NCBI RefSeq assembly: GCF_055900595.2
Contig: NZ_CM148325.1
Strand: one strand, 5' to 3'
Length of the DNA stretch: 64,000 bases
The translations under genes were made by a program, and so were the position numbers. Shown one piece after another: positions 28,560 through 59,590 of this stretch; positions within the stretch are counted from its first letter, which is position 1, and each line of letters starts with the position of its first letter. The notes under the pieces are model-generated. The model did no database searches. It was given only the letters and a program-made list of their open reading frames with translations, and was not told where the DNA came from.

Positions 28560-28791
28560 CGAACGCGCCTGATGAAGATCCAGACGATTTAAGCACGGGA
28601 TATTTCGGCTCAGCGTACCGGTCAGCGGAGAACTGGACGACGTCACTGCGAAGCAGTCATTTCAGCGCGGCAGCCCGTCGGGGGATTATTTCTGACAGGT
28701 TTGTAGAAGCAATTTTGCAGTTTTGGCGCGAAAGGTGAGCGTTCATTAATTTGATTTATTCGCATCCATCAACGCTTTTAACTGCTCCGGC

Positions 28792-29270
28792 GTGCGGCAC
28801 TATAATGGTTTTCACAACAAGGAGCCATTTTCTTATACCACTTTCAGAGACCATCCGCTTATGCCACCGCCCTCTACGCAACTGTTTGCAGAGCACCTTC
28901 CCACCGAGTGGATACAGCACCTCCTGACGCTTTCTGCTCATGCGACCATTTGTCGTCTTAACCTGAGCGCGGATGGCGAAGCGGGGATTAGCCTGCTGGC
29001 CCGCAGCGCTGTCACCCAGGAGCGCCAGCGCGTGGGGGCCCCCTGGTGGAATGGCTCTTCCGCCAGACCGCACAGACATGGGGCGCGGAACGTTACCTGA
29101 AGGATGACTGGCACGGCCTGCAACTTTTTGCCATTGATGGCGCACAGTTCAGGACACCTATGAACCTGAGTTGCGTGAATATTATGGCTCTGCCAACACA
29201 TCCACTGAGCGGCAGAGCGCCTACCCGGTCATGCGTCTGGTGGCGTTAATGAATCTGGGAATCACATTCG
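28792..29270 (+). pseudogene. Fragmented DDE-transposase-like remnant (IS element relic) at the left edge of the accessory island
   Basis: Three short consecutive ORFs in different frames (…LFAIDGAQFRTP…, …YPVMRLVALMNLGITFG) consistent with a frameshifted transposase fragment; family not determinable by eye. Confidence 0.35.
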
Positions 29271-29712
29271 GCTGAATGCCATGACCGCGGCCTACCGGCG
29301 GAGCGATACAGCGTGAGGCAACTAAAGCGGCGTCAGAAATCAGCTTTAAGTTCGCATTCCTGTTTATCGTGACAGAAATGATAGTGCAGGGAAATACGGC
29401 GTCACCAGGAACCATCCCGAAACGGCTGGAGCATCTGCGGGGTGCTCTGGAAGCGGTGTTCCCACGACTATCAAGGCCGAGGGCTGTTAAGGTATCAAAA
29501 ACCCGTTATCCGGTGAAACACAGTGCTGCCCCGCTTAAGTGACGGCATTGTGTTTCTGACTGGCCTTAACTTTCCCTGAATCTCTGACGATCCTCACCAT
29601 TGATATTTTCTTCATTCCTCACCAGAGAAATAAAAAATCACTATACTCATCAAAATATGATGATTACCTTTATTCAGGTGATCACCTTACTATTTTATAC
29701 GGAAAATAAATC

Positions 29713-30363
29713 ATGAATATCCGTCAATCATTACATGACCGAATCTATGCAGAATACCCTCAACAGGCTAAAGATATATTACTGTATTTCCCCACTTATG
29801 AAATTATGCCATCGACCATAAAAATGGTTATGATTAATGAGGTGGTAGCTATAACACCGCAAGAAGATTTTTATACACCAGAGTCTGGTTATTTTACGAC
29901 TGTCGCCCGACAGTTAGCGCTGGCTGGATTATCGGCAAGTAGTGGCGAAGTCTTACTCAACCATGGTATCTACCTGACCTCCGCACTGAAACTACCTAAA
30001 ACACAGATCACAGCCACACCCGCGGAGATCATTCTCTGGTCACCTATTGTAGAATGGGAGCTCGAACTCTTTGCCAATATAAAAGTTATTTTCGTTGGCG
30101 GCGATATCGCGCGAAAATGCCTTAACATCATCGCGAAAAAGCAAACACGTAAACATGCCATCCCTTCAACTCCGACGTACAAACTGATGAATAGCGAATT
30201 AGTCTGGAAAGGAATAAGCATACTTCCTGGATATATTCTTACCGGAAAAAACCTGCTCATTGAAAAGTCAAAAATCGAAATGAATGTCGAACAATTAAGA
30301 AAAGGAATTGCGATTTATCGCAATAGTAACAGTAACCATACGAATAATTCAGTTCATGAATAA
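29713..30363 (+). CDS. Hypothetical protein (216 aa), orphan gene in AT-rich DNA at island edge
   Basis: Uninterrupted ORF with plausible start context; no motif I can confidently assign. Confidence 0.45.
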   Translation: MNIRQSLHDRIYAEYPQQAKDILLYFPTYEIMPSTIKMVMINEVVAITPQEDFYTPESGYFTTVARQLALAGLSASSGEVLLNHGIYLTSALKLPKTQITATPAEIILWSPIVEWELELFANIKVIFVGGDIARKCLNIIAKKQTRKHAIPSTPTYKLMNSELVWKGISILPGYILTGKNLLIEKSKIEMNVEQLRKGIAIYRNSNSNHTNNSVHE

Positions 30364-30876
30364 GAGATGAATCATTAATAACAAGAAATCACTGACAAAC
30401 CACCTGTAAAAGGTCAATCATTTTAGTTCAATTTCCTTTGTCATGATTATATTTTTATCGTCCTGACGATACTATTAACAATTACAATATTTATACCCTC
30501 CCCTGAACAAACAGAAAAGAACTCATACATTCGTTTATAATTCTGGTAATCCTGGCATCATACGTTTAAAATTTAAGGTGTTTGTTTTATAATCATGGTT
30601 CCAAAGACTATTGGTCACCAGAAAATGCCAGCCTTTTCGTGCCAGCTATATTTGTCCAGTGTGTTACCCCATCCAAAAATCATCCACATCCTGATGTTAC
30701 GTTAGATATAGAGAAAACAGGTTGTACTGTGCAATATGCTAACCGCATAAGCGAATATAATTTCTAAGCTGATATTGTCTGGCTGTTGGGAGCTAAACAA
30801 TATAAATATCGCCAGTTGCCAGAACGGTTATATAGACCAGGAGCGTTTCGGCTCCTGGTCTGTTTCGGACATATTA

Positions 30877-32991
30877 TCAATCAGCCACTAATAGCGGACT
30901 AGGGATACCAGATGATGAAACAAACAGCCCTTTTACGGCACGGGTTGCAGCCACATGCAGTAACGCGCGCTCATTAAATAATGCATCACGCTGTTCAACG
31001 GGATCATCGGATGCTAATGCTTTTATTTCCGGCACAACGCCTTCGTTAATCCCCACCAGGAACACATACTGGAACTCAAGCCCTTTAATACGGTGCATCG
31101 TTGCAACTCGCACGCCTGGGCGTGCATCGCTGTCACCGCTATCATTGCCTAAATTAAATGTCTCAATTCCGGCGTCATTGAGTGCTGATGCGTAGCGGTC
31201 GCAAGCATGTTTAGTACGCGCAGTAATGCAGATATCCTGAGAACGAACCTGATTCGCCAGCAATGCCTGAATTTGCTTGACGAGCGTTGCAGCCTCTTCT
31301 TTGAAATCTGCCGCATGCGTAATCATGGGCTTTTCCCCGTGCAGTAATGACAAATAATCATTACTGGTATCCGCTTCGCCATCGAGGTTATCAACCTTCA
31401 CACCAGTTAACAGCCCAACAGCAAATTGACGCGTCTCTTCTGTGGTCCGATAGTTAATCTTCAATTTTTTACTGCGACGACCACGGACGTTAATACCACA
31501 CTGACCAAGAACGACCTTATTGCGATAAATACGCTGATGCCCATCCCCGACAATAAACAGATCGTTGGGCGACTCGGGAACCAGGCTGCGAATAAGAGTA
31601 AATGCCGGGGCACCGATATCTTGAGCTTCATCGACGACAATACTGCTATAAGGTAGTTGGACCTGCTTTTCTTTAAACAGAACAATAGCCTCATGCATGG
31701 CATCGCCCATTTCGCGCAGTTTGGCACGCGCCATTTGTGCTCTGAATTCTTCGAAAACTGGCCAGATTTTCGCCCGTTGAATACGGGATAACGCTGTACC
31801 ACGTCCAACCCGGCTGACTTTGAGGTATTCCTCCCGGGTGTAAACCGCATTTGGCTGGACAACGCGTTGCCACTCTTCAGCATAGAAATTGTCAGGTAGC
31901 CCCAGTTCGGCAGGTGCCTGCTGCAAGGCATAGTTCCAGCATTTACGTCGCCCTTCATCGCTGTCGTATACCACGCGGAAATCATAACCGTGGCGTTTTA
32001 GTTGGTCGCTCATCCAGGCATCAATGTTAACGACGTCAATACGCGCCATCTCTTCTCGCGTACACAACCGCTGGAGATTAGCGCGAATATCTGCCGCCAG
32101 GTTACGCGTAAAGGTCGTGAAAAGTACCTTCTTACCGGGTTTATCTACCAGACGCTGAGATAACCACCGCGCACGGTGCATTGCAACAACCGTTTTCCCT
32201 GTACCTGCACCGCCCAGTACTCGTACCGGACCATTAGCGGGCGACTCCACCAGTTTTCGCTGGCTCGGGTGCAGAAATACACGCCATTTTTCTAAAGGCG
32301 CATTAAGCATCTGCAATAGTTCCTGTTCATTTTCAACGACATGGAAGCGACGTTTACTTCGTTCAATCGCCTCCATAAAGTCGTTGGTATCAACAGGCTC
32401 ATCACGATGATCGTTAAACTCTTCCAGCACTTCCTGGTAATCCAGCCCTTCTGCCAGCCAGTGCAGAGGTTCCCAGGCTTCTGCTGGCATTATGCTTTCA
32501 AGTTGATTAAGCCCGGCTTCATCGGTAAGCGCCATCACCTGATCAATAAAGACAGGCGGCACACCCAGGGCCAGAATCTGTTCCGCGCTGTAAGCTGCGA
32601 AGAGTTTCGGTTTATCAACCACCGTTTCCGCTGCCGGTTTGATATAGCTAATATCAATGACCTGAATCGCGCCAGTAACCGGGTGAATCGAACAATCATG
32701 CCGCCGCGCCCAGTCATATGCTTCGTCGTGTTTATCCACCCACATCAGCATATACAGAGCACCCTGTTCAGGTTTCAGAACAATGCCGCGATAAGTTTGA
32801 TCGATTCGCACCGAATGGACATTTTTACTGCGCGCATCGTGGATCTTTTCATAGTTAAGTCCATTACTGGTCGGGTCCTGACGGAATTTGGAGATGAATT
32901 CCTGCACCTTTTTTTGCTGTGCTTTTGGGATCCGCGCGAATGCGCCCAGAAAACCATCAGAAAGTGCCACCTTGGGCGTTTGCACCGTCAT
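30877..32991 (-). CDS. UvrD/PcrA-like superfamily 1 helicase with ~230-aa N-terminal extension (YjhR-like); last gene of the DISARM-like operon
   Basis: Walker A VLGGAGTGKTVVAMHRA, Walker B IVVDEAQDI, C-terminal UvrD_C-like motif ATMHRIKGLEFQYVFLVG; start overlaps upstream stop (ATGA at 32988-32991). Confidence 0.8.
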   Translation of the reverse strand: MTVQTPKVALSDGFLGAFARIPKAQQKKVQEFISKFRQDPTSNGLNYEKIHDARSKNVHSVRIDQTYRGIVLKPEQGALYMLMWVDKHDEAYDWARRHDCSIHPVTGAIQVIDISYIKPAAETVVDKPKLFAAYSAEQILALGVPPVFIDQVMALTDEAGLNQLESIMPAEAWEPLHWLAEGLDYQEVLEEFNDHRDEPVDTNDFMEAIERSKRRFHVVENEQELLQMLNAPLEKWRVFLHPSQRKLVESPANGPVRVLGGAGTGKTVVAMHRARWLSQRLVDKPGKKVLFTTFTRNLAADIRANLQRLCTREEMARIDVVNIDAWMSDQLKRHGYDFRVVYDSDEGRRKCWNYALQQAPAELGLPDNFYAEEWQRVVQPNAVYTREEYLKVSRVGRGTALSRIQRAKIWPVFEEFRAQMARAKLREMGDAMHEAIVLFKEKQVQLPYSSIVVDEAQDIGAPAFTLIRSLVPESPNDLFIVGDGHQRIYRNKVVLGQCGINVRGRRSKKLKINYRTTEETRQFAVGLLTGVKVDNLDGEADTSNDYLSLLHGEKPMITHAADFKEEAATLVKQIQALLANQVRSQDICITARTKHACDRYASALNDAGIETFNLGNDSGDSDARPGVRVATMHRIKGLEFQYVFLVGINEGVVPEIKALASDDPVEQRDALFNERALLHVAATRAVKGLFVSSSGIPSPLLVAD

Positions 32992-35900
32992 TTGTCACCT
33001 CCGGACAGATGTTGCAATGTAATTTCGTCAATTGGCCCGAATGCAACGTGCCAACCCCTGGTTGTGAATAATGGAATAAATTCTTGATTATCAATAATCA
33101 ATGCCCATTTTTGTGATGGCCAGGCGAGATCGGCTTCCGCAATAATTTCACCTTCATCATTTTGCAATTCGTAGCCGAGAGTCGGCGCAGAGAGAGAATG
33201 AGACTGAAGCAACGCGATCTCTTCAGCGCTTAATAAGCCAAACTCAATAATCTCAGCCCAACTTTCATCAGTCTCTGGTACTGCCTCTGGCGTTGCCGTA
33301 ACTTTAACGTCAACGCTTTCCTGCGGTAAATGCACGGCTTTACGGCTGGTAAAGGTCATATCCGGCAGGAACTGTAACAGGTTTACCAGTCGCCAGAAGC
33401 CATTGAGTCCCGCTTCATAACCGTCATCCTGCGTATAGCGATCGTCAAAACAGATATGCAAACGCAGCCAGCTGCGCATTTGTGCGACACTGGTCGTCGG
33501 TTTAATGGCTTGTTGTGGCAACACCGAAGCCAGCTCAATAAATTGCTGCGATGAGTTACAGCTATCGAGTAAACCACCAAAGACAAACGGTTCGTCTGGC
33601 AAAAGCTCTGCTAGCCGCCAGGCTGGCGCGTTTTCCTGCATTTCATAGGCATACTTTTGTTTCGTTCCCGCGTCCTGTGACTTCTTCACATCCAACCACA
33701 CCCAGGCATGTGCAGCAGCCATTCTCTGCCATAACTGCGTTCTTCCGCCCGGATCGGCGAGATAATCCAGCAGCAGTGCAAAACTGTTGCGTTCCCGGAA
33801 CGACGCTTCAAGGGCCGCAAAGTTGGTATCGTGAAACAGGTTATAAAACTTAGGCTGTTTCATATCCGGGTTATGCCCAAGCCCCAGGACATCCTGAACA
33901 TGTTTAAGCCCAGGCTCTTTGAGATCGGCCCACGTGACTGTCCACACCCAGAAATTATCGCTATCCCGAATCGCCTGGCGTTTTTGCACATCCTCTGCGA
34001 CGCTATTTTTGTGAAACGCAAAGCCATCAAGGAAAATAGCTACCGGTTTAATGGCATCAGACTGCATAAGCGGATATAGCACGTAATCCGGGCGACAAGG
34101 GATCCCCACTGCCTCTTTAGCGCCTAAATCCACCTGAGCTTTAAGATGCCAGCTCATCATCGGTTCGCTGCGGGTGTTAATAATCCACCCAGCGCCCTGA
34201 TGCGCGTAACTGCGACTGACAATCAGGTTTTTATTTTCTTGCAGGCAGCTAATAAACCGTTTTTCCAGCTCACTGCCCATCATGGCTTCGAGGGAAATGT
34301 TTTTGATGGAATCAATTACCCGTATCGAATCTCTTGCCTGCAAAATTTTCGCCAGCAAGAGACGCGCCTGATCGCGGGAGACATACTTCATGCGCCCACG
34401 GTCACGGTAAGCGTAAACGCAACGATAACAACCATCTTTATGCGTATCATGGTTGCAACTGCATTCCACTATCGCCTGATAGGCCAGTTCAAGTAATTTC
34501 AGCAAATTGTCGGGAGTGCGCATCAGCTCTTTAAGAGAACCAGTCCCCCCCGGGACGGTATCGTAAATCACCAGATACTGCCGCCAGGATTCGCCTTCAT
34601 TTTCCGGCTCGCGGTACACAACGCCTTTCAGGTGATCGACATTCCCCTTGAAGTAATGTTTAAGGCCGAGCTGGATCGCCGCCCCAAGAGAAGCCTCCAC
34701 GACACGGTCATTACTGTAACTGCTTACCGGGAGCAGAATTCGCAACGCTTCTGACTCCAGCTGGCGATAGAGATAGAGATAATCTTCGAACTTCGCCTTT
34801 TCCGGTTCCGTGCGATATTTGCAGCTCAAATCATGACGTGGTTCATGATCGCGAGGACGCTGTACCATGCCGCACCCCAGGCAAACTTTAAACCCGGTTC
34901 GCTTCTTCGCTTCTCCGGCAATCATCAACTCATTGGCATCATCCGCCATTTTGCCGAAGTTGATATCCCGCAGGGTGACTTTGCTTAAAAATTCAAAACC
35001 AAACGGAACTTCGCCTTCCTCAATCGCGTATGCCGCCGATACATCTTCTTTTTCGAAACTAACCAATAGCTGACGCTGGAAGAAAGCAGGTTCACGGCTG
35101 TCGCTCTCGTCGCTGATCTGGCTATCACGTGCGCTGGCGCGGGCATACACCTGGCGAAGTTTCAGCAGCGTGGTTTTTTGTCCGGCGTCGGCCCACCCCG
35201 GTGTGCCACATTTCGGGCAATATTTATGCTGGTCGCCCGTCTGGTCGATATTTTCGCTGTAGTTACAGTGGCTACAGATACGCCAGTTCTCCGGCTCAGA
35301 GACCTTCAGGTCTATCTGCTCAATTTCAACTTTATGCCCACCGGCATAGAAATTATTCAGCGGAGCCAGCTCAGCCAGCGCCGTTGATGCCGGGCGTTCA
35401 TATTCGAAAGTGGTGTTTTGATATTCACGCGCTTCCCCGCCTTCTTTACGCCGCCAGAGCACAGAACGTAACGTAATACCGGCTTCCGGAAAGGCGTAGT
35501 TAGGCAGCAGACCTTCATCCGTGAGGAAATTCAGCGTCTGCTTATTGTTGATTTGATTGACTAGCGCCATCAGCGCCTGCCGTTCTGAAGTTAACTCGCG
35601 CATATCGCTGTCAAAGTTTTGATCGCGCGGCGCGTTCTCCAGCTTATCGATACTGCGCTTGAGTTTATCGATGCGTGAACGCAGAGATTTGCGATCTTCC
35701 ACCAGCAGTTTTAACGCCTCTTCGATACGCTGCACCAGAGAGCGTTGTCCTGGCGCGCCCTGAAGATAAGACAACAACTGTTGGCGAGTTTCTGCGGCAA
35801 GATCGGGGAAGATCGCCGTAAATTGTGCAGCAATCTCCGCATGATGCTGTTCGATATATCTCAGTAAGTTATACGGAAAACCCGATTTACGCCCGAACTC

Positions 35901-38900
35901 CAGCTCATCCAGCATCTGTTTGACGTTTTTACAGATAGCGGATTCTGGTACACCGGTTTTCACCCAGTTATCCATACAAAAAGCTGCCAGCTGGCGTTCG
36001 AGAATAGCCGTTGCATTGAGGAAGACGCCAGGAGCCTGCACCTGGCCCTGCATCATCTCCAGCGGTTCTTCAAAGAAAAACTGATCGTGCGGGTTCCCTT
36101 CTGCCACGGTAATGTTTAACGCGTTACCATCTTTACGACCGGCGCGACCAATACGCTGCAAGTAGTTGGCCTGAGCAGGTGGGACAGAACAGAGTAAAAC
36201 GGTGGAAAGATCCCCAACGTCAATACCCATCTCCAGCGTCGGTGTTGCCGACAACAGGTTGATATTCCACGGTTGGTTGCCGCGGTAGAACGATTTTTCG
36301 GTGGCTTCGCGATCTTCACGGCTAAGCAGCCCCGTGTGTTCTGCGCCCTGCACGCGCGCGATGTCCATGTTCTCCCAACGCCAGGTCGCCATATTGTCGA
36401 CTTCCTGGTAACGACCTTCACAACGTAAAGAGAGACAAGGCGCATTACGCCACTGCCAGCCTTGATCGGCCGGAGCCCGGACAACCTCACGGCAACATGA
36501 ACAATTAAGCTGAACGACGTCACGGCTCACCACCAGCGCAGAAGGCACCAGTCCCCAGGCTTCACGCCCTTTGGTGTCAAAATCTTTTACTACTCCGGCT
36601 ATTTTCAACGCCGTAAACAGGCGTCGTAACACTGTTTCCGCAACGCTACTGATAAACAGATTATTGCCGTTACTCAGCGTGCGATTGATCCAATGCTGAT
36701 ACCAACTGGGGTTAGACTTCGCGCCAATCAGGCGATGGAAACCATTAATTTTTTCAAACGACGCATAAGCCGGTTTACGCGTTTTCGGACCGATAGAAGG
36801 CATATAGCGCGAGGTACGCTCTTTTTGCGTCATCATAAAGGTCGTGCCATCACGGCGATAACTTTCGAACGTCGGATGCATAACGGCCCCGGCCTGGCGT
36901 TGATACCAAATAACCCCCAGCGCCAGGTGCGCGACCTGCTCGACGCTCACACCGGACATCTCATCACCCAGCTCTTCACAAAGCTGTTGATGCAGGGCGG
37001 TAATTGCCGGATTAAAGCGTTCTTTATCCACTCCGGCAACGGCATAACCGGTGGCTTCCAGCGTACGTCCGATACGCGCGCGCAGGGTAAATTCGCTGTA
37101 CACCTCCCAGTCGAGGCGCAGGGAAACCAGCTCCGGCAGATCGGAGTTCTCCGCCAGTTTGCCTTCATTTTTCAGTGTCTGATAATCATTCAGCCACTGC
37201 ATATTTGGTGCGATGAAGTTCGCTGCAAAATGAGCATCGTCCGGTGAACGTTCACGCGTTTGTTGGCAAACACGCGCCGCGAACGCATCCAGCGGTAATG
37301 TCTCTTTTTCGCCAAGAACACTGGCGATTTGCCCACGAATCATCAGCGGCCAGGTACGGGCAGTAAAGAAGCTGGCACGATGCGCGGCGTCTTGTACCGA
37401 GTCAGAAAACGTAATCAGCTTTTTATGTTCGTTGAACTGGCTGCCATAAAGCTGGTGAATCATCACCGCCGACAGACTGGCAGCCCGTGACCCCAGAATC
37501 GAAATCCCCTGTTTGCTGTTGCAGTACGGGCATTCATTAGCAAACTCCAGCTCGTCCTTACGCTCTTTGAGCATATCCGGGATCAGTACCTGCAACAGTT
37601 CCGTATGACCGCAATGTCCACACTGGACGCTGGACTGTCGGTTCAGTTTCAGACAGATAGGGCACAGTTTCTGGTGTGCGCCACTGACCGCTTTTTCGTT
37701 GTTATCCGGGAAAGCAAGGACGATGGAGCGCCCTTTTTCAAAGAACTGGCGATAAATGCCGTCGAGGTCTGTTTCCAGCTGAACGCTTTGCCCATGACGC
37801 AGGCTGGCCCAGCCGGTTGCGTGGCAGTCACGGCAGTGGATAACCGGCAAATAGTGTTCGCGATCTTCCACCGCCACATCATCGGCAAACACCAGTCTCG
37901 GCGTTTTCGCCACGCTGGCGACCAGACGACGCATCTCACGAAGCCACAACTGGGAACGCAGTTGCACAAACGGCAACACCGGGCGCGCTTTCTTCGCCTG
38001 GAGACGTTTTTGCCGATCGTGTTCCGTTTCCGGTACTTCGAGACGTGCCTGCGCGATCAGCGCCAGAATGCTTTGCAGCACGCGTCGGGCATGGTCGGCG
38101 CTTTCTGCCAGCATGACCTGGAGATTTTCCAGACACTCTCGTTCAGAGAGGATCCCGCCTTGCAGATCATGGAGTAAGACATGCATCACGCTGTGGCGGC
38201 GTAACAGTGACCCCAGCGCAATACGCTTTTCGCGCCCGTCGTCGCTCTCCAGATCGTCCGGGAGTTGCAAGTCGCTGTCGGAGAACCACAAAGGGATTTG
38301 TCCGTTGAGATACGCCACCGGGGTAGCGTAACTCTGCGGGTCCAGCGCCGAAGCGACCTCCGGCCCCGGATACTGACTGTACGCAATGGCGTAATCCTGC
38401 AAGTACTCCGCTGCCGTGTAGCGATCTTCGCGAATAACGGCGTCATCGGTAAACGGCTGGTCAAAGATTGTTTTTGCGTAATCGAGCAGTTGCCCCAGTT
38501 CGTCGCCGACGGTAGCTGATGTCCCGACGCAGGCGAATCGTTGGTTATCCACACCTATGTGATGCTTCAGACGTCGCACCAGACAGGCCAGATCCGACCC
38601 TTGCGCGCCATCAAACGTATGCAATTCATCCACGACCAGGTAACGCAATGAACCGGGCTGGTTGTAACGCCAGAGCGGCTGATCGCCAGGGCGCATCAGT
38701 AGGTAGTCGAGCATTTTGTAGTTGGTCAACAGGATGTCCGGCGGGCTTTCGCGCAGCGTGTGCTTACAGGTAATGACCTTTTCTGCCGACATTTTTTTGC
38801 TGGGTTCGATTTCGCTGTCGCCGACAAACAATCCGACGGTCACCTTGCCATGCAGTTGTGGATCGCTGGCGATGGTTTTGGCGAAACGGCTGGCCTGATC

Positions 38901-39329
38901 GGTTGCCAGGGCGTTCATCGGGTAGATGATAATTGCTTTAACCCCGGCTTGTGACGCGCCCGCGCAGTGGTTGAGCAGCGGGAACATAAAGCATTCTGTT
39001 TTACCGGAGCCGGTACCGGTAGCGACCAGTGTCGGCTGTGGCGCGTCGCATCCCAGACGCTGAAATGCCCGGGCCTGATGCGCGTGCGGCGGGAACGGCA
39101 GCGTCAGATTAGGGAAAAAATTCAGCGGTAAGTCACTTTTACGAAACGGCAACTGGGCGGAAAGGTATGGTCCTTTCAGCAGCGTTTCGGGCTGGGCCAG
39201 AAATTGCTCCAGCATTGAGACATTATCGTTATTCTCACCGTTAAACAGCGGGCTGTTTAGCGGGAACGCCGCCCGTAAAAAGGCGGCAACGCTGTCGGCG
39301 ACCTGCCGACTGACAACGGACGGCAACAT
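32988..39329 (-). CDS. Giant (2113 aa) DEAH-box helicase with C-terminal Cys-rich Zn-ribbon region (DUF1998/MrfA-like); fused DrmA+DrmB-type or DruE-like protein
   Basis: Motif I LVATGTGSGKTECFMFPLL, motif II YLVVDELHTF, motif VI QRIGRAGRKDG; Cys clusters CSHCNYSEN...CPKCG, CLGCGMV, CSCNHDTHKDGCYRC; start overlaps upstream stop by 1 nt (TGATG at 39327-39331). Confidence 0.8.
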   Translation of the reverse strand: MLPSVVSRQVADSVAAFLRAAFPLNSPLFNGENNDNVSMLEQFLAQPETLLKGPYLSAQLPFRKSDLPLNFFPNLTLPFPPHAHQARAFQRLGCDAPQPTLVATGTGSGKTECFMFPLLNHCAGASQAGVKAIIIYPMNALATDQASRFAKTIASDPQLHGKVTVGLFVGDSEIEPSKKMSAEKVITCKHTLRESPPDILLTNYKMLDYLLMRPGDQPLWRYNQPGSLRYLVVDELHTFDGAQGSDLACLVRRLKHHIGVDNQRFACVGTSATVGDELGQLLDYAKTIFDQPFTDDAVIREDRYTAAEYLQDYAIAYSQYPGPEVASALDPQSYATPVAYLNGQIPLWFSDSDLQLPDDLESDDGREKRIALGSLLRRHSVMHVLLHDLQGGILSERECLENLQVMLAESADHARRVLQSILALIAQARLEVPETEHDRQKRLQAKKARPVLPFVQLRSQLWLREMRRLVASVAKTPRLVFADDVAVEDREHYLPVIHCRDCHATGWASLRHGQSVQLETDLDGIYRQFFEKGRSIVLAFPDNNEKAVSGAHQKLCPICLKLNRQSSVQCGHCGHTELLQVLIPDMLKERKDELEFANECPYCNSKQGISILGSRAASLSAVMIHQLYGSQFNEHKKLITFSDSVQDAAHRASFFTARTWPLMIRGQIASVLGEKETLPLDAFAARVCQQTRERSPDDAHFAANFIAPNMQWLNDYQTLKNEGKLAENSDLPELVSLRLDWEVYSEFTLRARIGRTLEATGYAVAGVDKERFNPAITALHQQLCEELGDEMSGVSVEQVAHLALGVIWYQRQAGAVMHPTFESYRRDGTTFMMTQKERTSRYMPSIGPKTRKPAYASFEKINGFHRLIGAKSNPSWYQHWINRTLSNGNNLFISSVAETVLRRLFTALKIAGVVKDFDTKGREAWGLVPSALVVSRDVVQLNCSCCREVVRAPADQGWQWRNAPCLSLRCEGRYQEVDNMATWRWENMDIARVQGAEHTGLLSREDREATEKSFYRGNQPWNINLLSATPTLEMGIDVGDLSTVLLCSVPPAQANYLQRIGRAGRKDGNALNITVAEGNPHDQFFFEEPLEMMQGQVQAPGVFLNATAILERQLAAFCMDNWVKTGVPESAICKNVKQMLDELEFGRKSGFPYNLLRYIEQHHAEIAAQFTAIFPDLAAETRQQLLSYLQGAPGQRSLVQRIEEALKLLVEDRKSLRSRIDKLKRSIDKLENAPRDQNFDSDMRELTSERQALMALVNQINNKQTLNFLTDEGLLPNYAFPEAGITLRSVLWRRKEGGEAREYQNTTFEYERPASTALAELAPLNNFYAGGHKVEIEQIDLKVSEPENWRICSHCNYSENIDQTGDQHKYCPKCGTPGWADAGQKTTLLKLRQVYARASARDSQISDESDSREPAFFQRQLLVSFEKEDVSAAYAIEEGEVPFGFEFLSKVTLRDINFGKMADDANELMIAGEAKKRTGFKVCLGCGMVQRPRDHEPRHDLSCKYRTEPEKAKFEDYLYLYRQLESEALRILLPVSSYSNDRVVEASLGAAIQLGLKHYFKGNVDHLKGVVYREPENEGESWRQYLVIYDTVPGGTGSLKELMRTPDNLLKLLELAYQAIVECSCNHDTHKDGCYRCVYAYRDRGRMKYVSRDQARLLLAKILQARDSIRVIDSIKNISLEAMMGSELEKRFISCLQENKNLIVSRSYAHQGAGWIINTRSEPMMSWHLKAQVDLGAKEAVGIPCRPDYVLYPLMQSDAIKPVAIFLDGFAFHKNSVAEDVQKRQAIRDSDNFWVWTVTWADLKEPGLKHVQDVLGLGHNPDMKQPKFYNLFHDTNFAALEASFRERNSFALLLDYLADPGGRTQLWQRMAAAHAWVWLDVKKSQDAGTKQKYAYEMQENAPAWRLAELLPDEPFVFGGLLDSCNSSQQFIELASVLPQQAIKPTTSVAQMRSWLRLHICFDDRYTQDDGYEAGLNGFWRLVNLLQFLPDMTFTSRKAVHLPQESVDVKVTATPEAVPETDESWAEIIEFGLLSAEEIALLQSHSLSAPTLGYELQNDEGEIIAEADLAWPSQKWALIIDNQEFIPLFTTRGWHVAFGPIDEITLQHLSGGDK

Positions 39330-42300
39330 CAGGCGCTCTCCTTATCTTGTGCAAAGAACGCCCAGGCCACTTTGTAATCGTCTTCGCGATCCGGCTTGAT
39401 AAACGGAGCCTGCCAGGTGACGGTACGGCGCTCGCCTTCGTCGCTGCGGGTATAGTCATCAAAGGTGACGCTGACGGTACCGGTTTGCAGATGTTTGACA
39501 TCATCCCAGCCGATAGCCTGATCGGTGCAGTCACCGCCGGTCCAGTCCGGGCTGTCGACGTTAAAGACAAAGCCGTTTTTCAGGTCAGCTTTACGCGCAG
39601 TGCGAGGCAAGCCAACGCCCACCAGCCCTTTGCTTGGGGTAAAGATAATGCGACCGTTTTGATCGTACCAGGTATCCGCTTCGTACTGGCGCATCACCGG
39701 GAACTGAACGCGATAAATGGTAAGCAGTTCTTCGAGGGTTAACCCTAGCGCCTGCGCCACCAGTACGTCGATTTCCACCAGCGCCTGACGACGACTGTAG
39801 TCAGAGCGTAAGGCGCAGTTACGCTGCCACTCTGGGGTCAGATTGGTGAAGAAATCCTGGGGAAGCGGCGGGAGATCGCGGCTCCAGCGCTGGGTGTTGA
39901 AGTCTGGGGTGTAGCAGGATTGCCAGAGATCAGCGTAATCTTTCGTTAACACATTCAAAGCTAATGCTCTTGAGTTTGCACTCATTAACTCAACATAAGG
40001 GAAGCCACGCAATGTTGATTCATAAACATCCGCCCGCCCTGTTGTTTTCAAATAAAAATCAGCCACTATTGAATGGCAAAATGCAGAGAAACTTAGCAGG
40101 TTTATTGGCTCTCTAAATGTTGTTGAGAGTACAGGGTGTATATGAGCAACGTGCTTTGGAACTATGCTGGATATCATCGAGCGTTCTGATGATGCCCCAA
40201 ACATTCTTCGATTAACAAAACGATAATAGTCCGTCACCTTCCTCGGCTCGTCTTCATCCTGCTCTTTCCACGAAACCCGTGGGGTGCGCTTTGCATACTC
40301 CTGTGCATCACAGGCTGGAATATAGTTAGTGCGCGGCAAATAGTCGTCGGGCAGAGTTAGCAATTCTAGGTTATCGTATGCTTTATTCGTGTCACAAACC
40401 GCTCTAGGCGTATTGTAGAAAGGATTGCCAACAAAAAAATGAGGGCCAGACAAAACCCATTGTGATGCTTCTTCCGGGAACTGTGTATGTCGCTCAATTG
40501 TACCATCGCTTTGCTGATTAGTTTCATGCCACATTTCTAGAGAATAATATTGCCCCTGCAAATCACCTAATCGCCTAGGTTGTTTCGCAAACTTTTCAAG
40601 TACTGCAACCAATTGAGTAGCATGTAACGCAGGAAGACGGGCTTCATGTGCTGTAGTGCCAGCACTATCATAGAGACGCGAGAAAAGACCTAATTGCTTT
40701 AAATTTACATGCAAGACTCGATCGAAATGTCCCTGAAAATTCCATTTAACCTTTATTTTACCATCAATTTCAGTTTCTTCTTTTATCCCCGGAACAATGC
40801 CTTCCCCTTTATGTTCAAAACACGCATCAATAGTTTGAGGAATAAATAAATTTGCTATATTTGAGAATGCCACTATCTGAGAATAGGGGCCATACACATT
40901 AATGCTAAATAATGTCTGGTTATGCACCTCAGTGAATAATTTCGTTTCATTAATAAACTGAAAATGCGCCCTAAGCCTCGGATATACCGACGCACGCAGC
41001 TGCCCGCCTTTTGGGTCATCATAAATCCCTTCCGGGTGCAGGAACCCTGCCACGCCTTTCTCTGCCCCCAGACGCCAGGCCTGCGGCAGGAAGCATTTAT
41101 ACAAGTTGGTCTGCACCCCGCGCAGTACCGGGTAGTTCTGCTGCGCATTGAGGAAGTTTTGCATCCCTTCACAGCCTTCATACTCGCTGCGCCAGGCCGC
41201 TTCCAGCGCCGGGATCTGGTTAAAGGTATCAATACGCAACGTTGCCAGCTTCGATGCACTCAGCTTACGCAGCACAAATTCCGGCTCGTAATCACCCAGC
41301 ACGCCCGCTTCCTGCCATTCCACTTTCAGCCACGGCGGGTTTCCGAGCATCAGGTCAAAACCGCCACGCTCGGCAAACAAGTCGCAGAACTCCAGATCCC
41401 AGTGGAAGAAACGGTGCTGCTTTCTCAGGGCATCGACAATCGCCAGACGCGGCAAATGACGGAACAACACCTCGGTTTTCAGACGACCAGCAACGGAAAA
41501 CAGCGAAGACTCTTCTCGCAGCAGGCCGTCTTCGGCAAACAGATCGCCAGTGGTGTGCTCCGCAACTTCAGTGACTTTTTCCGTGATTACAATCCCGTCG
41601 AGCAGGGTTTCAATCTCAAACAACCAGGTGCCGCGATCCGGTAACTCATCGGCTTTGTCGATCGGCCAGAACCACAGCGCGCACCAGTAGTCCATCACCC
41701 AACGCAGCTTCTGGTAGGCGCTGTTATCTTCAAGACGACCGCTAAAGGTTTCATCTTTACTGCTCAGCGAAGAACGCGTCTGCTCGCTGTTTTCTGCCGG
41801 CCACACCGGGTAGCTGTCGGCGGTTTTCAGACGTTCTGCTTTAAGTTGCTGGCGATAGGTGTTCCACAGAGCTTCCACCTTTTCGCTGATACGCTGCACA
41901 TCAGCAATCTCATGCCCGGCAAAGCTTTTAATAAACTCTTTGCGCCAGCTGTCCAGGGCTTTGAAGTCATCCGGATAACGCTGCTTAACAGTTTTATCGC
42001 TGTAGTTAGCCATACCGCCGTCGGGCAGCAGGAAGTGAAAAATCTGCGTCTCTTCACGCGGCGTGTTCATCGCCAGTTCGACCGGCTCGCTGTTAAGCCA
42101 GCTCGGATCTTTGGCTTTTTTGTAGGTCAGTTCACTCTTGTTGAACACCTGACGGCGCGCGCCCACCAGTGAGTTACCGCAGTGCAGCTGGTAACCAAAC
42201 CACGGTACAAAGGCATCGCCACTGATGGCGTTCAACCACAGCGACACTTCCGCCAGTTCCACCGCCACCGGGTTTAAGTCCACGCCGAAAACGTTGTTGT

Positions 42301-44251
42301 CGGCAATGTACATTTTCACCCGCTGTAACTCCTGGGTGTAACGATCCTGCGGAATACGGCGACCTTCCGCCTGCTGCTTGTGGAACAGATACGCTTCCGC
42401 CAGCTGGTTGATGGCTTCGTTAAGGAACGCCGCGCTGCCCATCGCCGGTTCGCACACGGTGAGGTTTAAGATGGCATCAGCTTTGGCGTGCGGATCGCTA
42501 ATGGGATCAATCTGCTCCTTAAACAGTTCTTTCAGGGCATATTTAACCAGTGAGCGGGTCAGCACTTCCGGGGTGTAATAAGAGGCAGATTTCTCACGGT
42601 CGCGCCCGGCCATACGGTAGATAAAACTGCCTTTGCGGTGAATGCGCAGACTGCCGTCTTTCTCGTAGACCTTCTCGTCTTCGTGGTATTTGCCAATCTC
42701 ATCCTTACTGACGAAGTAACCCGTCTCCAGCTCGTTAAACTCTTCCCCGGCTTTCTTCACCTCGTAGAGATCTTCGCTGGCGAAGAATCCGCGATAGGAA
42801 AGCAGCGCCTCATACACCGCACCTAACTGGTTGATACCCAACTGGCGATAAGAAATACGTCCGCGGCGGTTAAAGCGCCCTTTGCCCGGGCGGCTTAACG
42901 ACATCGCCTGGATAATCTGTTGCAGGGTTTCGTTACGGAATACCACGCGGTTAAGAATGCGGGTGTTGTTGGCATCGAAAAGATGACTTTCCAGACGCGG
43001 GACGCTGAACTGATGACTATGGATGGTGATCCGGTCGCCGCTCTCCAGGTCACTCTGTATTTTCACGCCGCCGTTGTAGCCTTCGCGCACCAGTTTAAAC
43101 AGCATATTCAGGCTGTCGTGGAAGTAGCGCCCGTTGCGATCTTCTTCGCTGGTCAGCGGGATCATCTCCAGATCGCGCAACGTTTCCAGGCTGTAACCTT
43201 GCAGATAGGTTTTGGCGGTCATTGGCGCATAACCCAGCTCCGGGCGCGCTTCAATGTAGAACAGGAACAGCAGGCGGTACATGTAACGCAGACATTCGCG
43301 GCTCAGTTCATCCGGGTCCACCGCACGGTTACCGGTATAGTTTGCCAGGCCACGGTCGATCAGATAATGCATCGCTTCGTTGCCCAGCAGCTCAATACTT
43401 TCGCGCAGGGCATATTTCAGATCTTCCGAAACACCAAACGCATGTTTGTGCGAATTGTCATCCAGCGAGTCAAGATAAGGTGCCCCACTGCCCGGCAGCA
43501 GCGAATCTTTATGTAGCAACACTGCCGTCGCTTTCAGCGTATCCGTTTCACGACGACTTAAAATCTCTTCAAAATCAAAACGTAGCAGACGGTTTTGCGC
43601 CCACTTAGTACGGTCCAACAACAATAGCTGACGGTTACCGAGCAGCAGCACAAAACGCGGCGGTTCATTTTGAGTGAAGACCGCCGTAGAGAGCAGATCC
43701 TGCCAGCTGCGATATTCACCGTTGGCTTTTTTGCGCAGGCTGTCGCGCTTATGTTTGTCGGTATCCGCCGGGAATTGCGCGGTCAGTAAAGAGAGCGCCA
43801 GCGGATCCAGCGTTCCTTCTTCCTGATCGTGTGCTTCAACAATCCACAGCCACGGGCTACCGTCAGTGCTGTTGTAACGCGCCAGTACCGGCAGTGGTGT
43901 ATCGTCATCCAGCATTTGGATCTGCGGCGTAATTTCGTAGCCCAGCGCCTTTAACAATGGCTGCCAGCGATTACGTTGATCGGCCAGACGCTGCGGGATC
44001 TGACGCTGTTTTTCGTGCTCGGCAAGTTTGCGGAAAAACTCAGTCGCCAGACTGTTAAACTGGTTCCACGGAGCGCGGTATCCCGGCTCTACGTCTTTGC
44101 CCTGTTCACGAGCGGCACGCTCCGCTTCACGCGCTGCATTTTCCTGGGCTATCCAGGGTTCCAGCACATCGCGGATATCACTGGTGAATACCTCACCCAA
44201 ATAGTGGTTAGAGTAAAATTCGTTTTCGTTATTAATACCGACCAGCGCCAT
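39329..44251 (-). CDS. Large (1640 aa) N6-adenine (amino) DNA methyltransferase, DrmMI-like
   Basis: AdoMet-binding motif I CEPAMGSAAFLNEA and catalytic motif IV GNPPW (NPPW = N6A/N4C amino-MTase signature); starts 2 bp after the SNF2 gene stop. Confidence 0.85.
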   Translation of the reverse strand: MALVGINNENEFYSNHYLGEVFTSDIRDVLEPWIAQENAAREAERAAREQGKDVEPGYRAPWNQFNSLATEFFRKLAEHEKQRQIPQRLADQRNRWQPLLKALGYEITPQIQMLDDDTPLPVLARYNSTDGSPWLWIVEAHDQEEGTLDPLALSLLTAQFPADTDKHKRDSLRKKANGEYRSWQDLLSTAVFTQNEPPRFVLLLGNRQLLLLDRTKWAQNRLLRFDFEEILSRRETDTLKATAVLLHKDSLLPGSGAPYLDSLDDNSHKHAFGVSEDLKYALRESIELLGNEAMHYLIDRGLANYTGNRAVDPDELSRECLRYMYRLLFLFYIEARPELGYAPMTAKTYLQGYSLETLRDLEMIPLTSEEDRNGRYFHDSLNMLFKLVREGYNGGVKIQSDLESGDRITIHSHQFSVPRLESHLFDANNTRILNRVVFRNETLQQIIQAMSLSRPGKGRFNRRGRISYRQLGINQLGAVYEALLSYRGFFASEDLYEVKKAGEEFNELETGYFVSKDEIGKYHEDEKVYEKDGSLRIHRKGSFIYRMAGRDREKSASYYTPEVLTRSLVKYALKELFKEQIDPISDPHAKADAILNLTVCEPAMGSAAFLNEAINQLAEAYLFHKQQAEGRRIPQDRYTQELQRVKMYIADNNVFGVDLNPVAVELAEVSLWLNAISGDAFVPWFGYQLHCGNSLVGARRQVFNKSELTYKKAKDPSWLNSEPVELAMNTPREETQIFHFLLPDGGMANYSDKTVKQRYPDDFKALDSWRKEFIKSFAGHEIADVQRISEKVEALWNTYRQQLKAERLKTADSYPVWPAENSEQTRSSLSSKDETFSGRLEDNSAYQKLRWVMDYWCALWFWPIDKADELPDRGTWLFEIETLLDGIVITEKVTEVAEHTTGDLFAEDGLLREESSLFSVAGRLKTEVLFRHLPRLAIVDALRKQHRFFHWDLEFCDLFAERGGFDLMLGNPPWLKVEWQEAGVLGDYEPEFVLRKLSASKLATLRIDTFNQIPALEAAWRSEYEGCEGMQNFLNAQQNYPVLRGVQTNLYKCFLPQAWRLGAEKGVAGFLHPEGIYDDPKGGQLRASVYPRLRAHFQFINETKLFTEVHNQTLFSINVYGPYSQIVAFSNIANLFIPQTIDACFEHKGEGIVPGIKEETEIDGKIKVKWNFQGHFDRVLHVNLKQLGLFSRLYDSAGTTAHEARLPALHATQLVAVLEKFAKQPRRLGDLQGQYYSLEMWHETNQQSDGTIERHTQFPEEASQWVLSGPHFFVGNPFYNTPRAVCDTNKAYDNLELLTLPDDYLPRTNYIPACDAQEYAKRTPRVSWKEQDEDEPRKVTDYYRFVNRRMFGASSERSMISSIVPKHVAHIHPVLSTTFREPINLLSFSAFCHSIVADFYLKTTGRADVYESTLRGFPYVELMSANSRALALNVLTKDYADLWQSCYTPDFNTQRWSRDLPPLPQDFFTNLTPEWQRNCALRSDYSRRQALVEIDVLVAQALGLTLEELLTIYRVQFPVMRQYEADTWYDQNGRIIFTPSKGLVGVGLPRTARKADLKNGFVFNVDSPDWTGGDCTDQAIGWDDVKHLQTGTVSVTFDDYTRSDEGERRTVTWQAPFIKPDREDDYKVAWAFFAQDKESA

Positions 44252-44253
44252 GA

Positions 44254-47112
44254 TTAACCCTCCGCTCCGGTGATAACAGCAATTACCTGAATGTAGGGTT
44301 CTTTTTCAGTCGTCATGGTGTCCTCAATCCATTCGATATAGCTGTCAAAATTGTGTTCGATTTCGCGTTGTCTCTGCTCTTTACGGCTCTGCTTAACTGA
44401 CAATTGCTGTTTGTTATCGGCAAAATCCAGCTCAAGTTGGCTCAACTGCCGCCCACGCAAAACGTCCAGCTTTTGCAGATGCTCATTCAGTTGCTGGTTA
44501 ATGTGCGTTTCAAACGCATTCCGATCATGGATGAATACCTCCCGGGCATGAGCAATAGCCGCTTCCAGTAAATCCTGCTGGCGCTGGTGATTACGATCTT
44601 TACCGCCGCTGTTAGTCAGCTTGTTACTCAACTGCGGATGACGTTGTAAAAACTCAGCGAATGGCTGACTGCCGATTAGCGATTCACGGTTAAAGCTCAC
44701 CACTATCCACGGGTTCACCATCGGATGTGATTTACGGTTCGGGAATAACCCGGAAAGAATGAAGTGATCTTCATCGGGTTCAAGCAGGTATGGCAGACGG
44801 ATAACCGGTGCCTGATGACGACCAAAAGCCGAAGAGATTTTATCGTCCAGCCACTGCACTACCGGGTTGATTTGCCAGAGATACTGCACATCGGGCCAGG
44901 CATGTTGCTCACCGCGAGCGCGTGCAATCGCGTCGGTGATGACGGTTTTATCCTGACTTAAAAAGAGCTGCCAGTTCTCCGGGGCGATTTCAGGCGGTAG
45001 CTGGTTGAAGCGGCGGCGTAACTCCTCCGGTGCCACCAGCGACAAGGTATTATCAGGCAAGGTTTCATACTGGATAGTTTGACCACTGGCTTTCAGGTAA
45101 CCCAATGCTCTTTCACAGTACGCCTGTTCGCTGGCAAACAAGCTGGTGTCTGTTTCGATGACCATTGAGGCATCGCTGGAAACCGCACTGCATATTTCGC
45201 CAAACAGATCGTGTTCGGCGCTTTCCGAGACGTTGCTGTTCAGCAGTTGATCAAACAGGCTGGCACCATCATCCTGCATCATGAACTCTGCAACCTGCTC
45301 TTCTTCCTCTTCCTGGGTAAATTTGCCGGTAAACTCCGAACTGTCCCCAATGTTCTTCTGCGCCTGTTCGTCTTTGTTGATCAACACTTCCAGTACGCGC
45401 ATATCGCCATTGATCTGCGGTTCGCTGGCCTCGGTAAGCAGATAGCGGATTTGAGGCTGATGTTTTTGCCCATAGCGGTCAATACGCCCGTTACGTTGCT
45501 GGAATACCATCAACGACCACGGAATATCAAAGTGAATCATTTTGTGGCTAAGGTGATGCAGGTTGATCCCTTCAGATGCCACATCCGAACAAACCAGAAG
45601 ACGCAACGGCGACTGCGTTTTACCAAAGGCTTCTACGGTTTCCATCAACACCGTATCGCCCTGATCGCCGCGCAGCGTGGCGATCTGATCATCTTTCAAT
45701 TTCAGATCCGCTCGCAGTTGCTGTTCGAGGAACTCCAGCGTTTTAATGCTTTCGGTGAAGATCACCAGGCGATCTTCCGTGTTATTGGCTTTCCAGGCGA
45801 GGTCTTTTCGGATGGTGTCGAGCAGCAACTGGTATTTGCTAAACTGGCTGGCATCAATGTTATTCAGCGCCAACAGCAATGACTCCAGTTCGTTGATCTG
45901 GCTCTGGCTATTATGATCTTTACGGCTCTCAAGACGCTTCAGACGATTAGCCACTACGCTGGCACACGCCATCGGGCTGGAAAATAGCGCTTTTTCGAGG
46001 GTTATCTTGAACAGACGACCTTTGTTAGACTGGGCCTGTTCATCGTCATCATCACGGAACTGACTCTCAACCAGGCGACGGTATGCTTCTTCTTCGGCAC
46101 CGGATGCCAGGCGAGTCAGTTTGACAATATTGCGCTCGGGGAACTCGCCAGACATCTGATCTTTCACGTCTTTTTTGAAGCGACGGACAACCAGATTTTT
46201 ATCGGCAAAGTCGGCGTATTCATACTCTTTCGGGTTGGCGATCGCCGTCGGGTCAAGCATGTTCATCAGGCTGGCAAAACTTTCAGCTTTACCATCATGC
46301 GGCGTTGCTGAAAGCATAATCAGCGTATCGCTGCGCCCGGCGAGCAGTTTTGCCAGTTTACTGCGTAACGAACTGGTTCCACGTTCTGCGACGTTATGGG
46401 CCTCATCAATGACAATAATATCCCACCAGGCATTTTCCAGATGGTGACGATATTCAATATCTTGTTTCAGCGTATCGATGGAGATAATGGTCTTGTCAAA
46501 ATAGTGGAACGGGTTGTGGTTGGTAGGGATGCGGTTACGCACTTTTTGTAAACCAGCAGAATCCAGGCGGGTCAATGGGATCGCAAAACGGCTCCAGAAC
46601 TCCTTCTGGAATTGTGTCAGCATCGATTTAACCGCCAGAACCAGAATACGTTTTCCGCGCCCACGACGGATCAGTTCCGAAACCAGAATACCCGCTTCCA
46701 GCGTTTTACCCAGACCGACAGCGTCGGCAATGAGTATCCGCTGACGCGGTTGTGCCAGCGCCATCCGCGTAGGATCGAGCTGAAACGGCATGGAATCCAT
46801 CGCCGCCAGATGTCCAAAATGGACTTTACTGTCTGTCGGTACGCGTTGGCGTAACTGACTTTCAATATACAACTGTGCCGCCTGATAATTGGCGGATTCA
46901 TCTTCCACCAAATGCGTTTTTGCGGGATCAAGGATCTCTACTTTTTGTTCCAGTTTGGTCAGAAATAACCCTTCTTTACCGCGCACAAGCTCTGAAATAC
47001 CATCGCAGGTCAGCAAATACCCACCATCACCACTGTCATCCGCCCGGCGAATACGCCATTCGGCATCACGAATAACCACCCGCATACCAGGTGCATAATT
47101 TTGCTTATTCAT
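44254..47112 (-). CDS. SNF2-family helicase/ATPase (952 aa), DrmD-like
   Basis: Motif I LIADAVGLGKTLEAG, motif II IIVIDEAHNV, motif III LMLSATPHDG, SNF2-type motif VI FQQRNGRIDRYGQ. Confidence 0.85.
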   Translation of the reverse strand: MNKQNYAPGMRVVIRDAEWRIRRADDSGDGGYLLTCDGISELVRGKEGLFLTKLEQKVEILDPAKTHLVEDESANYQAAQLYIESQLRQRVPTDSKVHFGHLAAMDSMPFQLDPTRMALAQPRQRILIADAVGLGKTLEAGILVSELIRRGRGKRILVLAVKSMLTQFQKEFWSRFAIPLTRLDSAGLQKVRNRIPTNHNPFHYFDKTIISIDTLKQDIEYRHHLENAWWDIIVIDEAHNVAERGTSSLRSKLAKLLAGRSDTLIMLSATPHDGKAESFASLMNMLDPTAIANPKEYEYADFADKNLVVRRFKKDVKDQMSGEFPERNIVKLTRLASGAEEEAYRRLVESQFRDDDDEQAQSNKGRLFKITLEKALFSSPMACASVVANRLKRLESRKDHNSQSQINELESLLLALNNIDASQFSKYQLLLDTIRKDLAWKANNTEDRLVIFTESIKTLEFLEQQLRADLKLKDDQIATLRGDQGDTVLMETVEAFGKTQSPLRLLVCSDVASEGINLHHLSHKMIHFDIPWSLMVFQQRNGRIDRYGQKHQPQIRYLLTEASEPQINGDMRVLEVLINKDEQAQKNIGDSSEFTGKFTQEEEEEQVAEFMMQDDGASLFDQLLNSNVSESAEHDLFGEICSAVSSDASMVIETDTSLFASEQAYCERALGYLKASGQTIQYETLPDNTLSLVAPEELRRRFNQLPPEIAPENWQLFLSQDKTVITDAIARARGEQHAWPDVQYLWQINPVVQWLDDKISSAFGRHQAPVIRLPYLLEPDEDHFILSGLFPNRKSHPMVNPWIVVSFNRESLIGSQPFAEFLQRHPQLSNKLTNSGGKDRNHQRQQDLLEAAIAHAREVFIHDRNAFETHINQQLNEHLQKLDVLRGRQLSQLELDFADNKQQLSVKQSRKEQRQREIEHNFDSYIEWIEDTMTTEKEPYIQVIAVITGAEG

Positions 47113-47180
47113 CGGTTTTTCTGTCTATTTGGGGCAGTGGCGGTAACGTCATCCTGAAAAATGTGGCGCGGCACACTGCG

Positions 47181-47217
47181 ATAAAAAAGAGGGCCTTAAA
47201 GATATCATGAAGGCCCC
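47181..47217 (-). terminator. Rho-independent terminator between the Druantia-like pair and the SNF2 operon
   Basis: On the minus strand: stem GGGCCTT/AAGGCCC (7 bp, 12-nt loop) followed immediately by TCTTTTTTAT; located 120 bp after the 2107-aa gene stop. Confidence 0.65.
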
Positions 47218-47335
47218 CGGCAAAGTGACAAAATGGGAGGGAATGCGCATAATTTGCGCATGATTTTCAAACAAAAATTATTAAAAAGTGAGCTGGGTCA
47301 ACTCCCCTGGAAGATATCCCCAGGGGAGCAATTAT

Positions 47336-58873: not shown

Positions 58874-58879
58874 TCGATC

Positions 58880-59587: not shown

Positions 59588-59590
59588 GAG

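Follow-up and report, generated by a model that had tools for sequence, protein, structure and literature searches.

What defence system do the four genes at positions 30877–47112 encode, in a 64,000 nucleotide (nt) stretch of DNA from assembly GCF_055900595.2 (contig NZ_CM148325.1; the whole stretch is called the window here)? The initial annotation of this locus described a DISARM class 1-like operon and considered its composition possibly undescribed. However, the exact gene content and order are those of ARMADA type II (PMC12458937; 10.1101/2025.09.22.677730), and the window very probably carries an intact ARMADA type II anti-phage operon with the gene order armA-armB-armC-armD. The name stands for disARM-related Antiviral Defense Array (PMC12458937). 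The system is already known: its naming, classification, and experimental validation date from 2025, and later papers cite it. The four genes are:

44254–47112, minus strand: armA, SNF2/RapA-type (BrxHII/DrmD-like) ATPase, 952 amino acids (aa); Walker A K136, Walker B D236.
39329–44251, minus strand: armB, PglX/DrmMI-like gamma-class N6-adenine DNA methyltransferase, 1640 aa; S-adenosylmethionine (SAM) motif AMGSAAFL (G605), catalytic motif NPPW (N971).
32988–39329, minus strand: armC, YprA-family DExH helicase-nuclease, 2113 aa; Walker A K110, DELH D234.
30877–32991, minus strand: armD, predicted RelE-fold domain and a helical linker before a GajB/UvrD-like SF1 helicase, 704 aa; Walker A K266, Walker B D454.

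In ARMADA type II, by definition, ArmA (BrxHII/SNF2-like helicase) is followed in strict order by ArmB (PglX-like methyltransferase), ArmC (YprA-like helicase), and a GajB-like helicase (PMC12458937). The open reading frames, their junctions, and their family matches show this strict co-directional order in the window. All four genes lie on the minus strand with exactly the coordinates and lengths first annotated, and the junctions are also as described, i.e. a 2 bp gap (TAA TC ATG), a 1 nt overlap (TGATG), and a 4 nt overlap (ATGA). The open reading frames are 704–2113 aa long and have conserved homologues, thus a chance origin is not possible.

Compared with the proteins of Escherichia coli O157:H7 ATCC 43890, ArmA shows 99.8% identity, ArmB 90%, ArmC 99.3%, and ArmD 99.7%. 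The eight residues mutated in the published work are found at the same positions (ArmA K136/D236, ArmB G605/N971, ArmC K110/D234, ArmD K266/D454). Of 5426 complete E. coli genomes, 521 (about 10%) carry the cluster with 95–99% DNA identity, always annotated as the same four genes. The EDL933 counterpart is z5899–z5902 on O-island 172 (10.1101/2025.09.22.677730). ARMADA II of O157:H7 NCTC 12900/EDL933 and of ATCC 8739 has the same four genes, order, coupling, and island partners as the window, and the island context of the window is identical to that of O157:H7 and of strain EC42405. The difference between the window and published ARMADA II is confined to ArmB.

Motifs that the initial annotation had listed are located in the first two proteins: GLGKT (aa 133), DEAH (236), and QRNGRIDRYGQ (539) in ArmA, and AMGSAAFL (603) and NPPW (971) in ArmB. 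Profile searches, which it had proposed as a check, give Pfam and PADLOC assignments that agree with its SNF2, methyltransferase, DExH plus DUF1998, and UvrD-like families. PADLOC-DB v2 (2023) has no ARMADA models; with this database and NCBIfam the operon is split into ‘DrmD’, ‘type IIG R-M’ (restriction-modification), a partial ‘DruE’, and ‘GajB’.

The published functional results concern orthologues in NCTC 12900, ATCC 8739, and EDL933, which are about 99% identical (ArmB 90%), and resistance conferred by the operon in the window is inferred from this orthology. A bacterial artificial chromosome clone of the NCTC 12900 operon protects against 13 of 80 phages (PMC12458937). Targets are many siphoviruses, T5-like phages, and podoviruses, and hypermodified T-even phages are resistant. 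The mode is non-abortive, as infected cells remain intact and metabolically normal in propidium iodide and resazurin assays (PMC12458937). Removing any one of the four arm genes abolishes defence; residues ArmA K136 and D236, ArmC K110 and D234, ArmD K266, and ArmB N971 are required, and ArmB G605 and ArmD D454 are partly required (PMC12458937). ARMADA II also acts in synergy with Druantia III in ATCC 8739 (PMC12458937).

In the enterohaemorrhagic E. coli (EHEC) strain EDL933, ARMADA II changes the efficiency of plating 10^2- to 10^5-fold, T-even phages being resistant (10.1101/2025.09.22.677730). Single deletions of all four genes, armB included, were obtained in this strain and each lost defence, the loss being mildest for armD (10.1101/2025.09.22.677730). 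For the armB deletion, no growth differences without phage are reported in the accessible part of that study (10.1101/2025.09.22.677730). ARMADA II is reported to be the determinant that dominates phage resistance in EHEC O157:H7, and this makes it relevant to phage therapy.

ArmA contains the Pfam domains SNF2-rel_dom and Helicase_C and matches the PADLOC profiles DrmD (1.5e-99) and BrxHII (9.5e-60). With the NCBIfam profile DISARM_DrmD (NF038317) it scores 349.7 bits, under the curated cut-off of 610. A consensus scan of the region upstream of armA gives weak evidence of transcription signals:

47113–47335, minus strand: druE-armA intergenic region, with a terminator-like hairpin at 47304–47290 and a promoter-like site at 47231–47204.

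That ARMADA was cloned under its native promoters (PMC12458937) agrees with the promoter-like site.

ArmB matches the PADLOC profile REase_MTase_IIG (PDLC03614) over nearly its full length (6.6e-288) and DrmMI at 5e-57, and the N-terminal positions 200–500 match DrmMI at 1e-18. Pfam yields weak matches to Eco57I, MmeI_Mtase, and N6_Mtase and nothing else. A nuclease domain is not detectable in ArmB in Pfam scans or in a PADLOC sub-region scan. Comparison of alleles shows one variable segment:

39902–40954, minus strand: armB hypervariable block, aa ~1100–1450, probable target-recognition region.

In eight E. coli ArmB alleles the mean pairwise identity per 50 aa bin is 95–100% outside aa ~1100–1450 and 41–87% inside, where two hypervariable sub-blocks (aa 1100–1200 and 1350–1450) are found. 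This agrees with the report that between-strain diversity is concentrated in armB (10.1101/2025.09.22.677730). The pattern is probably the signature of a specificity, or target-recognition, module under diversifying selection, as judged from the allele sequences. The restriction of the variation to this block favours sequence-specific recognition and disfavours a purely structural role of ArmB. The window allele and the O157:H7 allele share 59% identity within aa ~1090–1460, thus the window probably has a different recognition motif. A megablast search with the window's variable segment gives no match covering at least 80% of it in any of the 5426 complete E. coli genomes. The block looks mosaic, with one side like strain 2452 and the other side like EC42405.

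The third protein had been described as a DEAH helicase with a Cys-rich zinc-ribbon tail. It is a helicase, but the box is DELH (aa 234; DExH type, with GSGKT at 107), and the Cys cluster is present, but not as a tail, as ~475 residues follow it. Pfam matches in ArmC are DEAD (aa 84–278), Helicase_C (993–1066), and MZB/DUF1998 (PF09369; 1549–1638, E-value = 8.5e-13). The last of these is the DrmB-like DUF1998 region that had been predicted inside this protein. Thus the giant helicase does combine a DrmA-type core and a DrmB-type DUF1998 module in a single polypeptide, as in DruE. Two parts of the C-terminal half are:

34416–34685, minus strand: ArmC MZB/DUF1998 four-Cys zinc module (Pfam PF09369), aa 1549–1638, the DrmB-like part; contains CSCNHDTHKDGCYRC.
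33918–34271, minus strand: predicted ArmC Vsr-type PD-(D/E)xK nuclease domain, aa ~1687–1804, motif RPDYV...AIFLDGFAFH.

Similarities of ArmC to other systems point to Druantia. The PADLOC profiles DruE3 (2e-103, 345 bits) and DruE1 (1.7e-96, 323 bits) both match in part, and DrmA gives 49 bits. With the DruE protein encoded next to it in the window, ArmC shares 30% identity over the first RecA lobe and 23% from RecA2 through DUF1998 (BLASTP E-values 5e-30 and 2e-25). On these sequence similarities the 2113 aa ArmC and its neighbour DruE are distant paralogues, ArmC being much closer to DruE than to DrmA. In the published phylogeny ArmC likewise groups with Druantia, not DISARM (PMC12458937).

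Predicted structures show a Vsr fold with the invariant D, D, H, and R residues in the C-terminal part of ArmC, which thus carries a fused Vsr-type PD-(D/E)xK nuclease predicted to be active. The same assignment, including predicted activity, has been published (PMC12458937). The N-terminal end of ArmD, left unassigned in the initial annotation, shows in its predicted structure a RelE/ParE fold with a helical linker behind it:

32653–32991, minus strand: predicted ArmD RelE/ParE-fold N-terminal domain, aa ~1–113.

Both published structural assignments, the Vsr domain of ArmC and the RelE domain of ArmD, are therefore reproduced independently here, and both rest on predicted structures. Pfam searches of the ArmC C-terminus and the ArmD N-terminus find no Vsr, DUF559, RelE, or ParE family. 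Searches of the same two regions against solved structures, with single sequences or profiles, give nothing relevant; one query matched through its UvrD-helicase part alone. A PLD domain is absent from all four Arm proteins in Pfam scans. The remainder of ArmD is as first annotated, a UvrD/GajB-like helicase, with Pfam UvrD-helicase at aa 241–490 and UvrD_C at 509–693 and a PADLOC match to GajB (2.7e-36); aa 1–240 show no Pfam match.

How could these four proteins act together? The following mechanism is the most likely of those considered, and confidence in it lies slightly above even. With its hypervariable region, ArmB would read a DNA motif specific to the strain and methylate host adenines there, the methylation presumably marking self, and discrimination of self from non-self would thus be methylation-based. 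Like PglX in BREX, ArmB would be required for restriction as well. ArmA would supply double-stranded DNA translocation, and ArmA and ArmB together would engage ArmC on unmodified phage DNA. By analogy with DruE and MrfA, ArmC would track single-stranded DNA (ssDNA) under an OB-CON-DUF1998 canopy and, as the effector, cut DNA with its fused Vsr-type nuclease. ArmD, with its RelE fold and UvrD-like motor, would be an accessory, essential when the system is carried on a plasmid and less important in EHEC.

Since an armB deletion can be obtained and loses defence, BREX-like logic fits better than classical restriction-modification. As in BREX type 1, a PglX-like methyltransferase is itself needed for defence, so that its deletion is tolerated, a BrxHII/SNF2-type helicase is a partner, and variation is concentrated in the specificity region of the methyltransferase. 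However, ARMADA has no BrxA, BrxB, BrxC, BrxL, or PglZ, and the YprA helicase-nuclease is the likely effector.

Several points weigh against this mechanism. The ArmB SAM-motif mutation G605A results in a partial loss of defence (PMC12458937). Neither primary paper gives a methylation motif or a methylome; the string ‘methylat’ is absent from Bell et al. (PMC12458937) and the word ‘methylation’ from the EHEC paper (10.1101/2025.09.22.677730). Within the variable block the ArmB allele of the window is unlike those tested, and its activity and motif are extrapolated. A BrxA-like helical domain after RecA1 of ArmC has been put forward, from structure, as a shared derived feature of the ARMADA/Druantia lineage (PMC12458937), but the sequence gives no confirmation of this insertion, a PADLOC scan of aa 281–500 yielding no family.

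The main rival is a methylation-independent, Druantia III-like system, in which ArmC senses exposed ssDNA or phage replication/recombination intermediates and ArmB has mainly a structural or DNA-binding role. This is a possible reading, though a distinctly less probable one. ArmC is most similar to DruE, and DruE recognises ssDNA, is a 3′-to-5′ ssDNA-dependent helicase, and requires its MZB domain; Druantia III works on replication intermediates. ARMADA II and Druantia III have overlapping phage ranges (10.1101/2025.09.22.677730), the armB deletion was obtained and grown in EDL933, and partial defence is kept with G605A. On the other hand, the NPPW mutation N971A abolishes defence (PMC12458937), a 2026 review places ARMADA among modification-based systems, and a sharply bounded hypervariable block in ArmB, in a system whose remainder is ~99% conserved, is hard to explain without sequence-specific recognition.

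The likeness to Druantia III is that ArmC and DruE are both ~2100 aa YprA-family helicases in which a long insertion separates the RecA lobes and a DUF1998 module is present. They differ at the ends, Vsr-type in ArmC and PLD-type in DruE, and the match of ArmC to DruE3 is partial (345 bits vs. 2173 bits for DruE itself). The ARMADA operon also has no DruH of its own, as the DruH at 53650–57009 pairs with its own DruE, and it adds a methyltransferase, a SNF2 ATPase, and a UvrD-like helicase.

Far less probable is that the operon works by abortive infection or as a toxin, with the RelE-like domain of ArmD acting as an RNase that halts translation once the helicases detect phage DNA. The intact and metabolically normal state of infected cells shows a non-abortive mode (PMC12458937), and armD deletion is the mildest of the four in EHEC; the escape of hypermodified T-even phages points to DNA targeting (10.1101/2025.09.22.677730). 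The predicted RelE-fold domain also separates ArmD from Gabija. The ArmD core (aa 240–700) does match GajB profiles (2.7e-36), but a GajA OLD-family nuclease partner is missing.

A class 1 DISARM variant, as first proposed, would be methylation-based, with DrmA and DrmB fused and the PLD nuclease DrmC replaced by a helicase. ARMADA does share with class 1 DISARM a SNF2 ATPase, a large N6-adenine methyltransferase with a common N-terminal region, and a DExH helicase with an OB-CON-DUF1998 module. The matches of ArmA to DrmD and of ArmB to DrmMI, including the N-terminal region of the latter, the DExH core plus DUF1998 of ArmC, and the published name, meaning ‘disARM-related’, are in favour of it. 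The differences are larger. DrmA and DrmB are separate adjacent genes in class 1 DISARM, whereas both parts lie in a single 2113 aa open reading frame here. In place of DrmC, a PLD nuclease, there is a predicted Vsr-type nuclease fused to the helicase, and there is an extra RelE-UvrD gene; hence ArmD is an additional component and not a replacement for the nuclease, and the proposed exchange of nuclease for helicase does not stand. ArmA remains well below the DISARM_DrmD cut-off (350 vs. 610 bits), ArmC scores 345 bits with DruE vs. 49 with DrmA and groups with Druantia in the published phylogeny, and none of the four proteins has a PLD domain. Thus the operon has DrmD-like and DrmMI-like partners and is related to DISARM, but it is very unlikely to be a variant of class 1 DISARM. 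Membership in DISARM, Druantia, or Gabija is rejected, as a defining feature of each, or more than one, is missing.

That ArmB works by itself as a type IIG restriction-modification enzyme, with three unrelated helicase genes as neighbours, is barely credible: the near full-length match to PDLC03614 (E-value = 6.6e-288) suggests it, but ArmB has no detectable nuclease and its N-terminal region resembles DrmMI, coupled junctions link the four genes, which always travel together, and all four are needed for defence (PMC12458937; 10.1101/2025.09.22.677730), so ArmB does not act alone.

Does ARMADA II stand by itself in the island? A canonical Druantia III and a complete Zorya II, both unmentioned in the initial annotation, lie beside it:

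47336–57009, minus strand: Druantia type III, druH (53650–57009) and druE (47336–53659, 2107 aa), immediately upstream of ARMADA and on the same strand.
57221–60694, plus strand: Zorya type II, zorA (57221–58873), zorB (58880–59587), and zorE (59591–60694), divergent from druHE.

The Druantia proteins match PADLOC DruH3 (2545 bits) and DruE3 (2173 bits), both over the full length, and DruH also matches NCBIfam YjiT_fam. The Zorya proteins match ZorA2, ZorB2, and ZorE2 over their full lengths, in agreement with the RefSeq annotation of syntenic strains. ARMADA II, Druantia III, and Zorya II make up a conserved tripartite island of the O-island 172 type.

The end of ArmC shows a link to this neighbourhood:

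33042–33269, minus strand: ArmC C-terminal tail domain, aa 2021–2096, homologous to the ZorE C-terminal domain.

The tail shares 40% identity (BLASTP E-value = 2e-8) with aa 279–335 of the ZorE encoded in the window (60425–60595), and the PADLOC ZorE2 profile matches it at 1e-9. The order of elements in its predicted model is alpha-alpha-beta-beta-beta-alpha-beta. A ZorE-like tail was also sought in DruE and is absent there. The tail may be a docking or DNA-binding (DNA-end-binding) module shared by ArmC and ZorE. If so, coupling of ARMADA II with Zorya II through it, whether physical or functional, might be part of the reason that the three systems move as a single block. Bell et al. (PMC12458937) make no mention of ZorE, and neither the ArmB variable-block allele nor the ArmC-ZorE tail homology is covered by the ARMADA papers examined, the EHEC paper not having been checked for the tail.

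A joint reading of these two features is speculative, and on balance doubtful. ARMADA II would be a system of shufflable specificity, in which ArmB sub-blocks recombine as in type I HsdS or BREX PglX, the strain having a possibly new methylation and restriction motif, and the ArmC/ZorE tail would be the module that couples ARMADA II to Zorya II. The variable block and the tail are in any case concrete handles for work on the mechanism.

The initial annotation had also suggested that a truncated helicase pseudogene next to nanS in E. coli K-12, yjhR, would be a relic of the last gene of the operon. This does not hold: yjhR shows no similarity to armD, and a tblastn search of the K-12 nanS-yjhR region with the four Arm proteins gives no match at an E-value of 1e-3. 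The translation of the yjhR pseudogene of MG1655 (7016–8032 of the region examined) is a C-terminal helicase portion with a PLD HxK motif (HSKIVIED...GSFN) behind it. With this motif, yjhR derives from another defence-like gene of helicase-PLD type at the same position next to nanS. Just past nanS, the homology of K-12 with the window stops.

The window is a segment of the E. coli chromosome with the order iatD - uxu - gntP - fim - nanC - nanM - nanS′, by synteny with EC42405, followed by the defence island. A tRNA integration site was not found within the window; EC42405 has a tRNA-Leu ~5 kb past the position that matches the right end of the window. The nanS gene (27759–28735) is frameshifted near codon 265, and degraded second copies of nanM′ (aa 1–165) and nanS′ (aa 257–325) are found just to the right of zorE (60904–61507). 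Copies of nan genes thus bracket the defence block and are perhaps a trace of its insertion or of recombination.

The spacer between nanS and armD (28742–30877) contains a 216 aa open reading frame (29713–30363) with no PADLOC match, and its syntenic counterpart in EC42405 is annotated as a hypothetical protein. In O157:H7 a frameshifted transposase-domain pseudogene is annotated nearby. The spacer is probably the decayed edge of a mobile element.

At the other side, the EC42405-syntenic counterparts of the open reading frames at 61521–62171 (minus strand) and 62251–63180 (plus strand) carry the annotations HNH endonuclease and phosphorothioated-DNA-binding restriction endonuclease, respectively. 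These two are likely further defence genes of the island.

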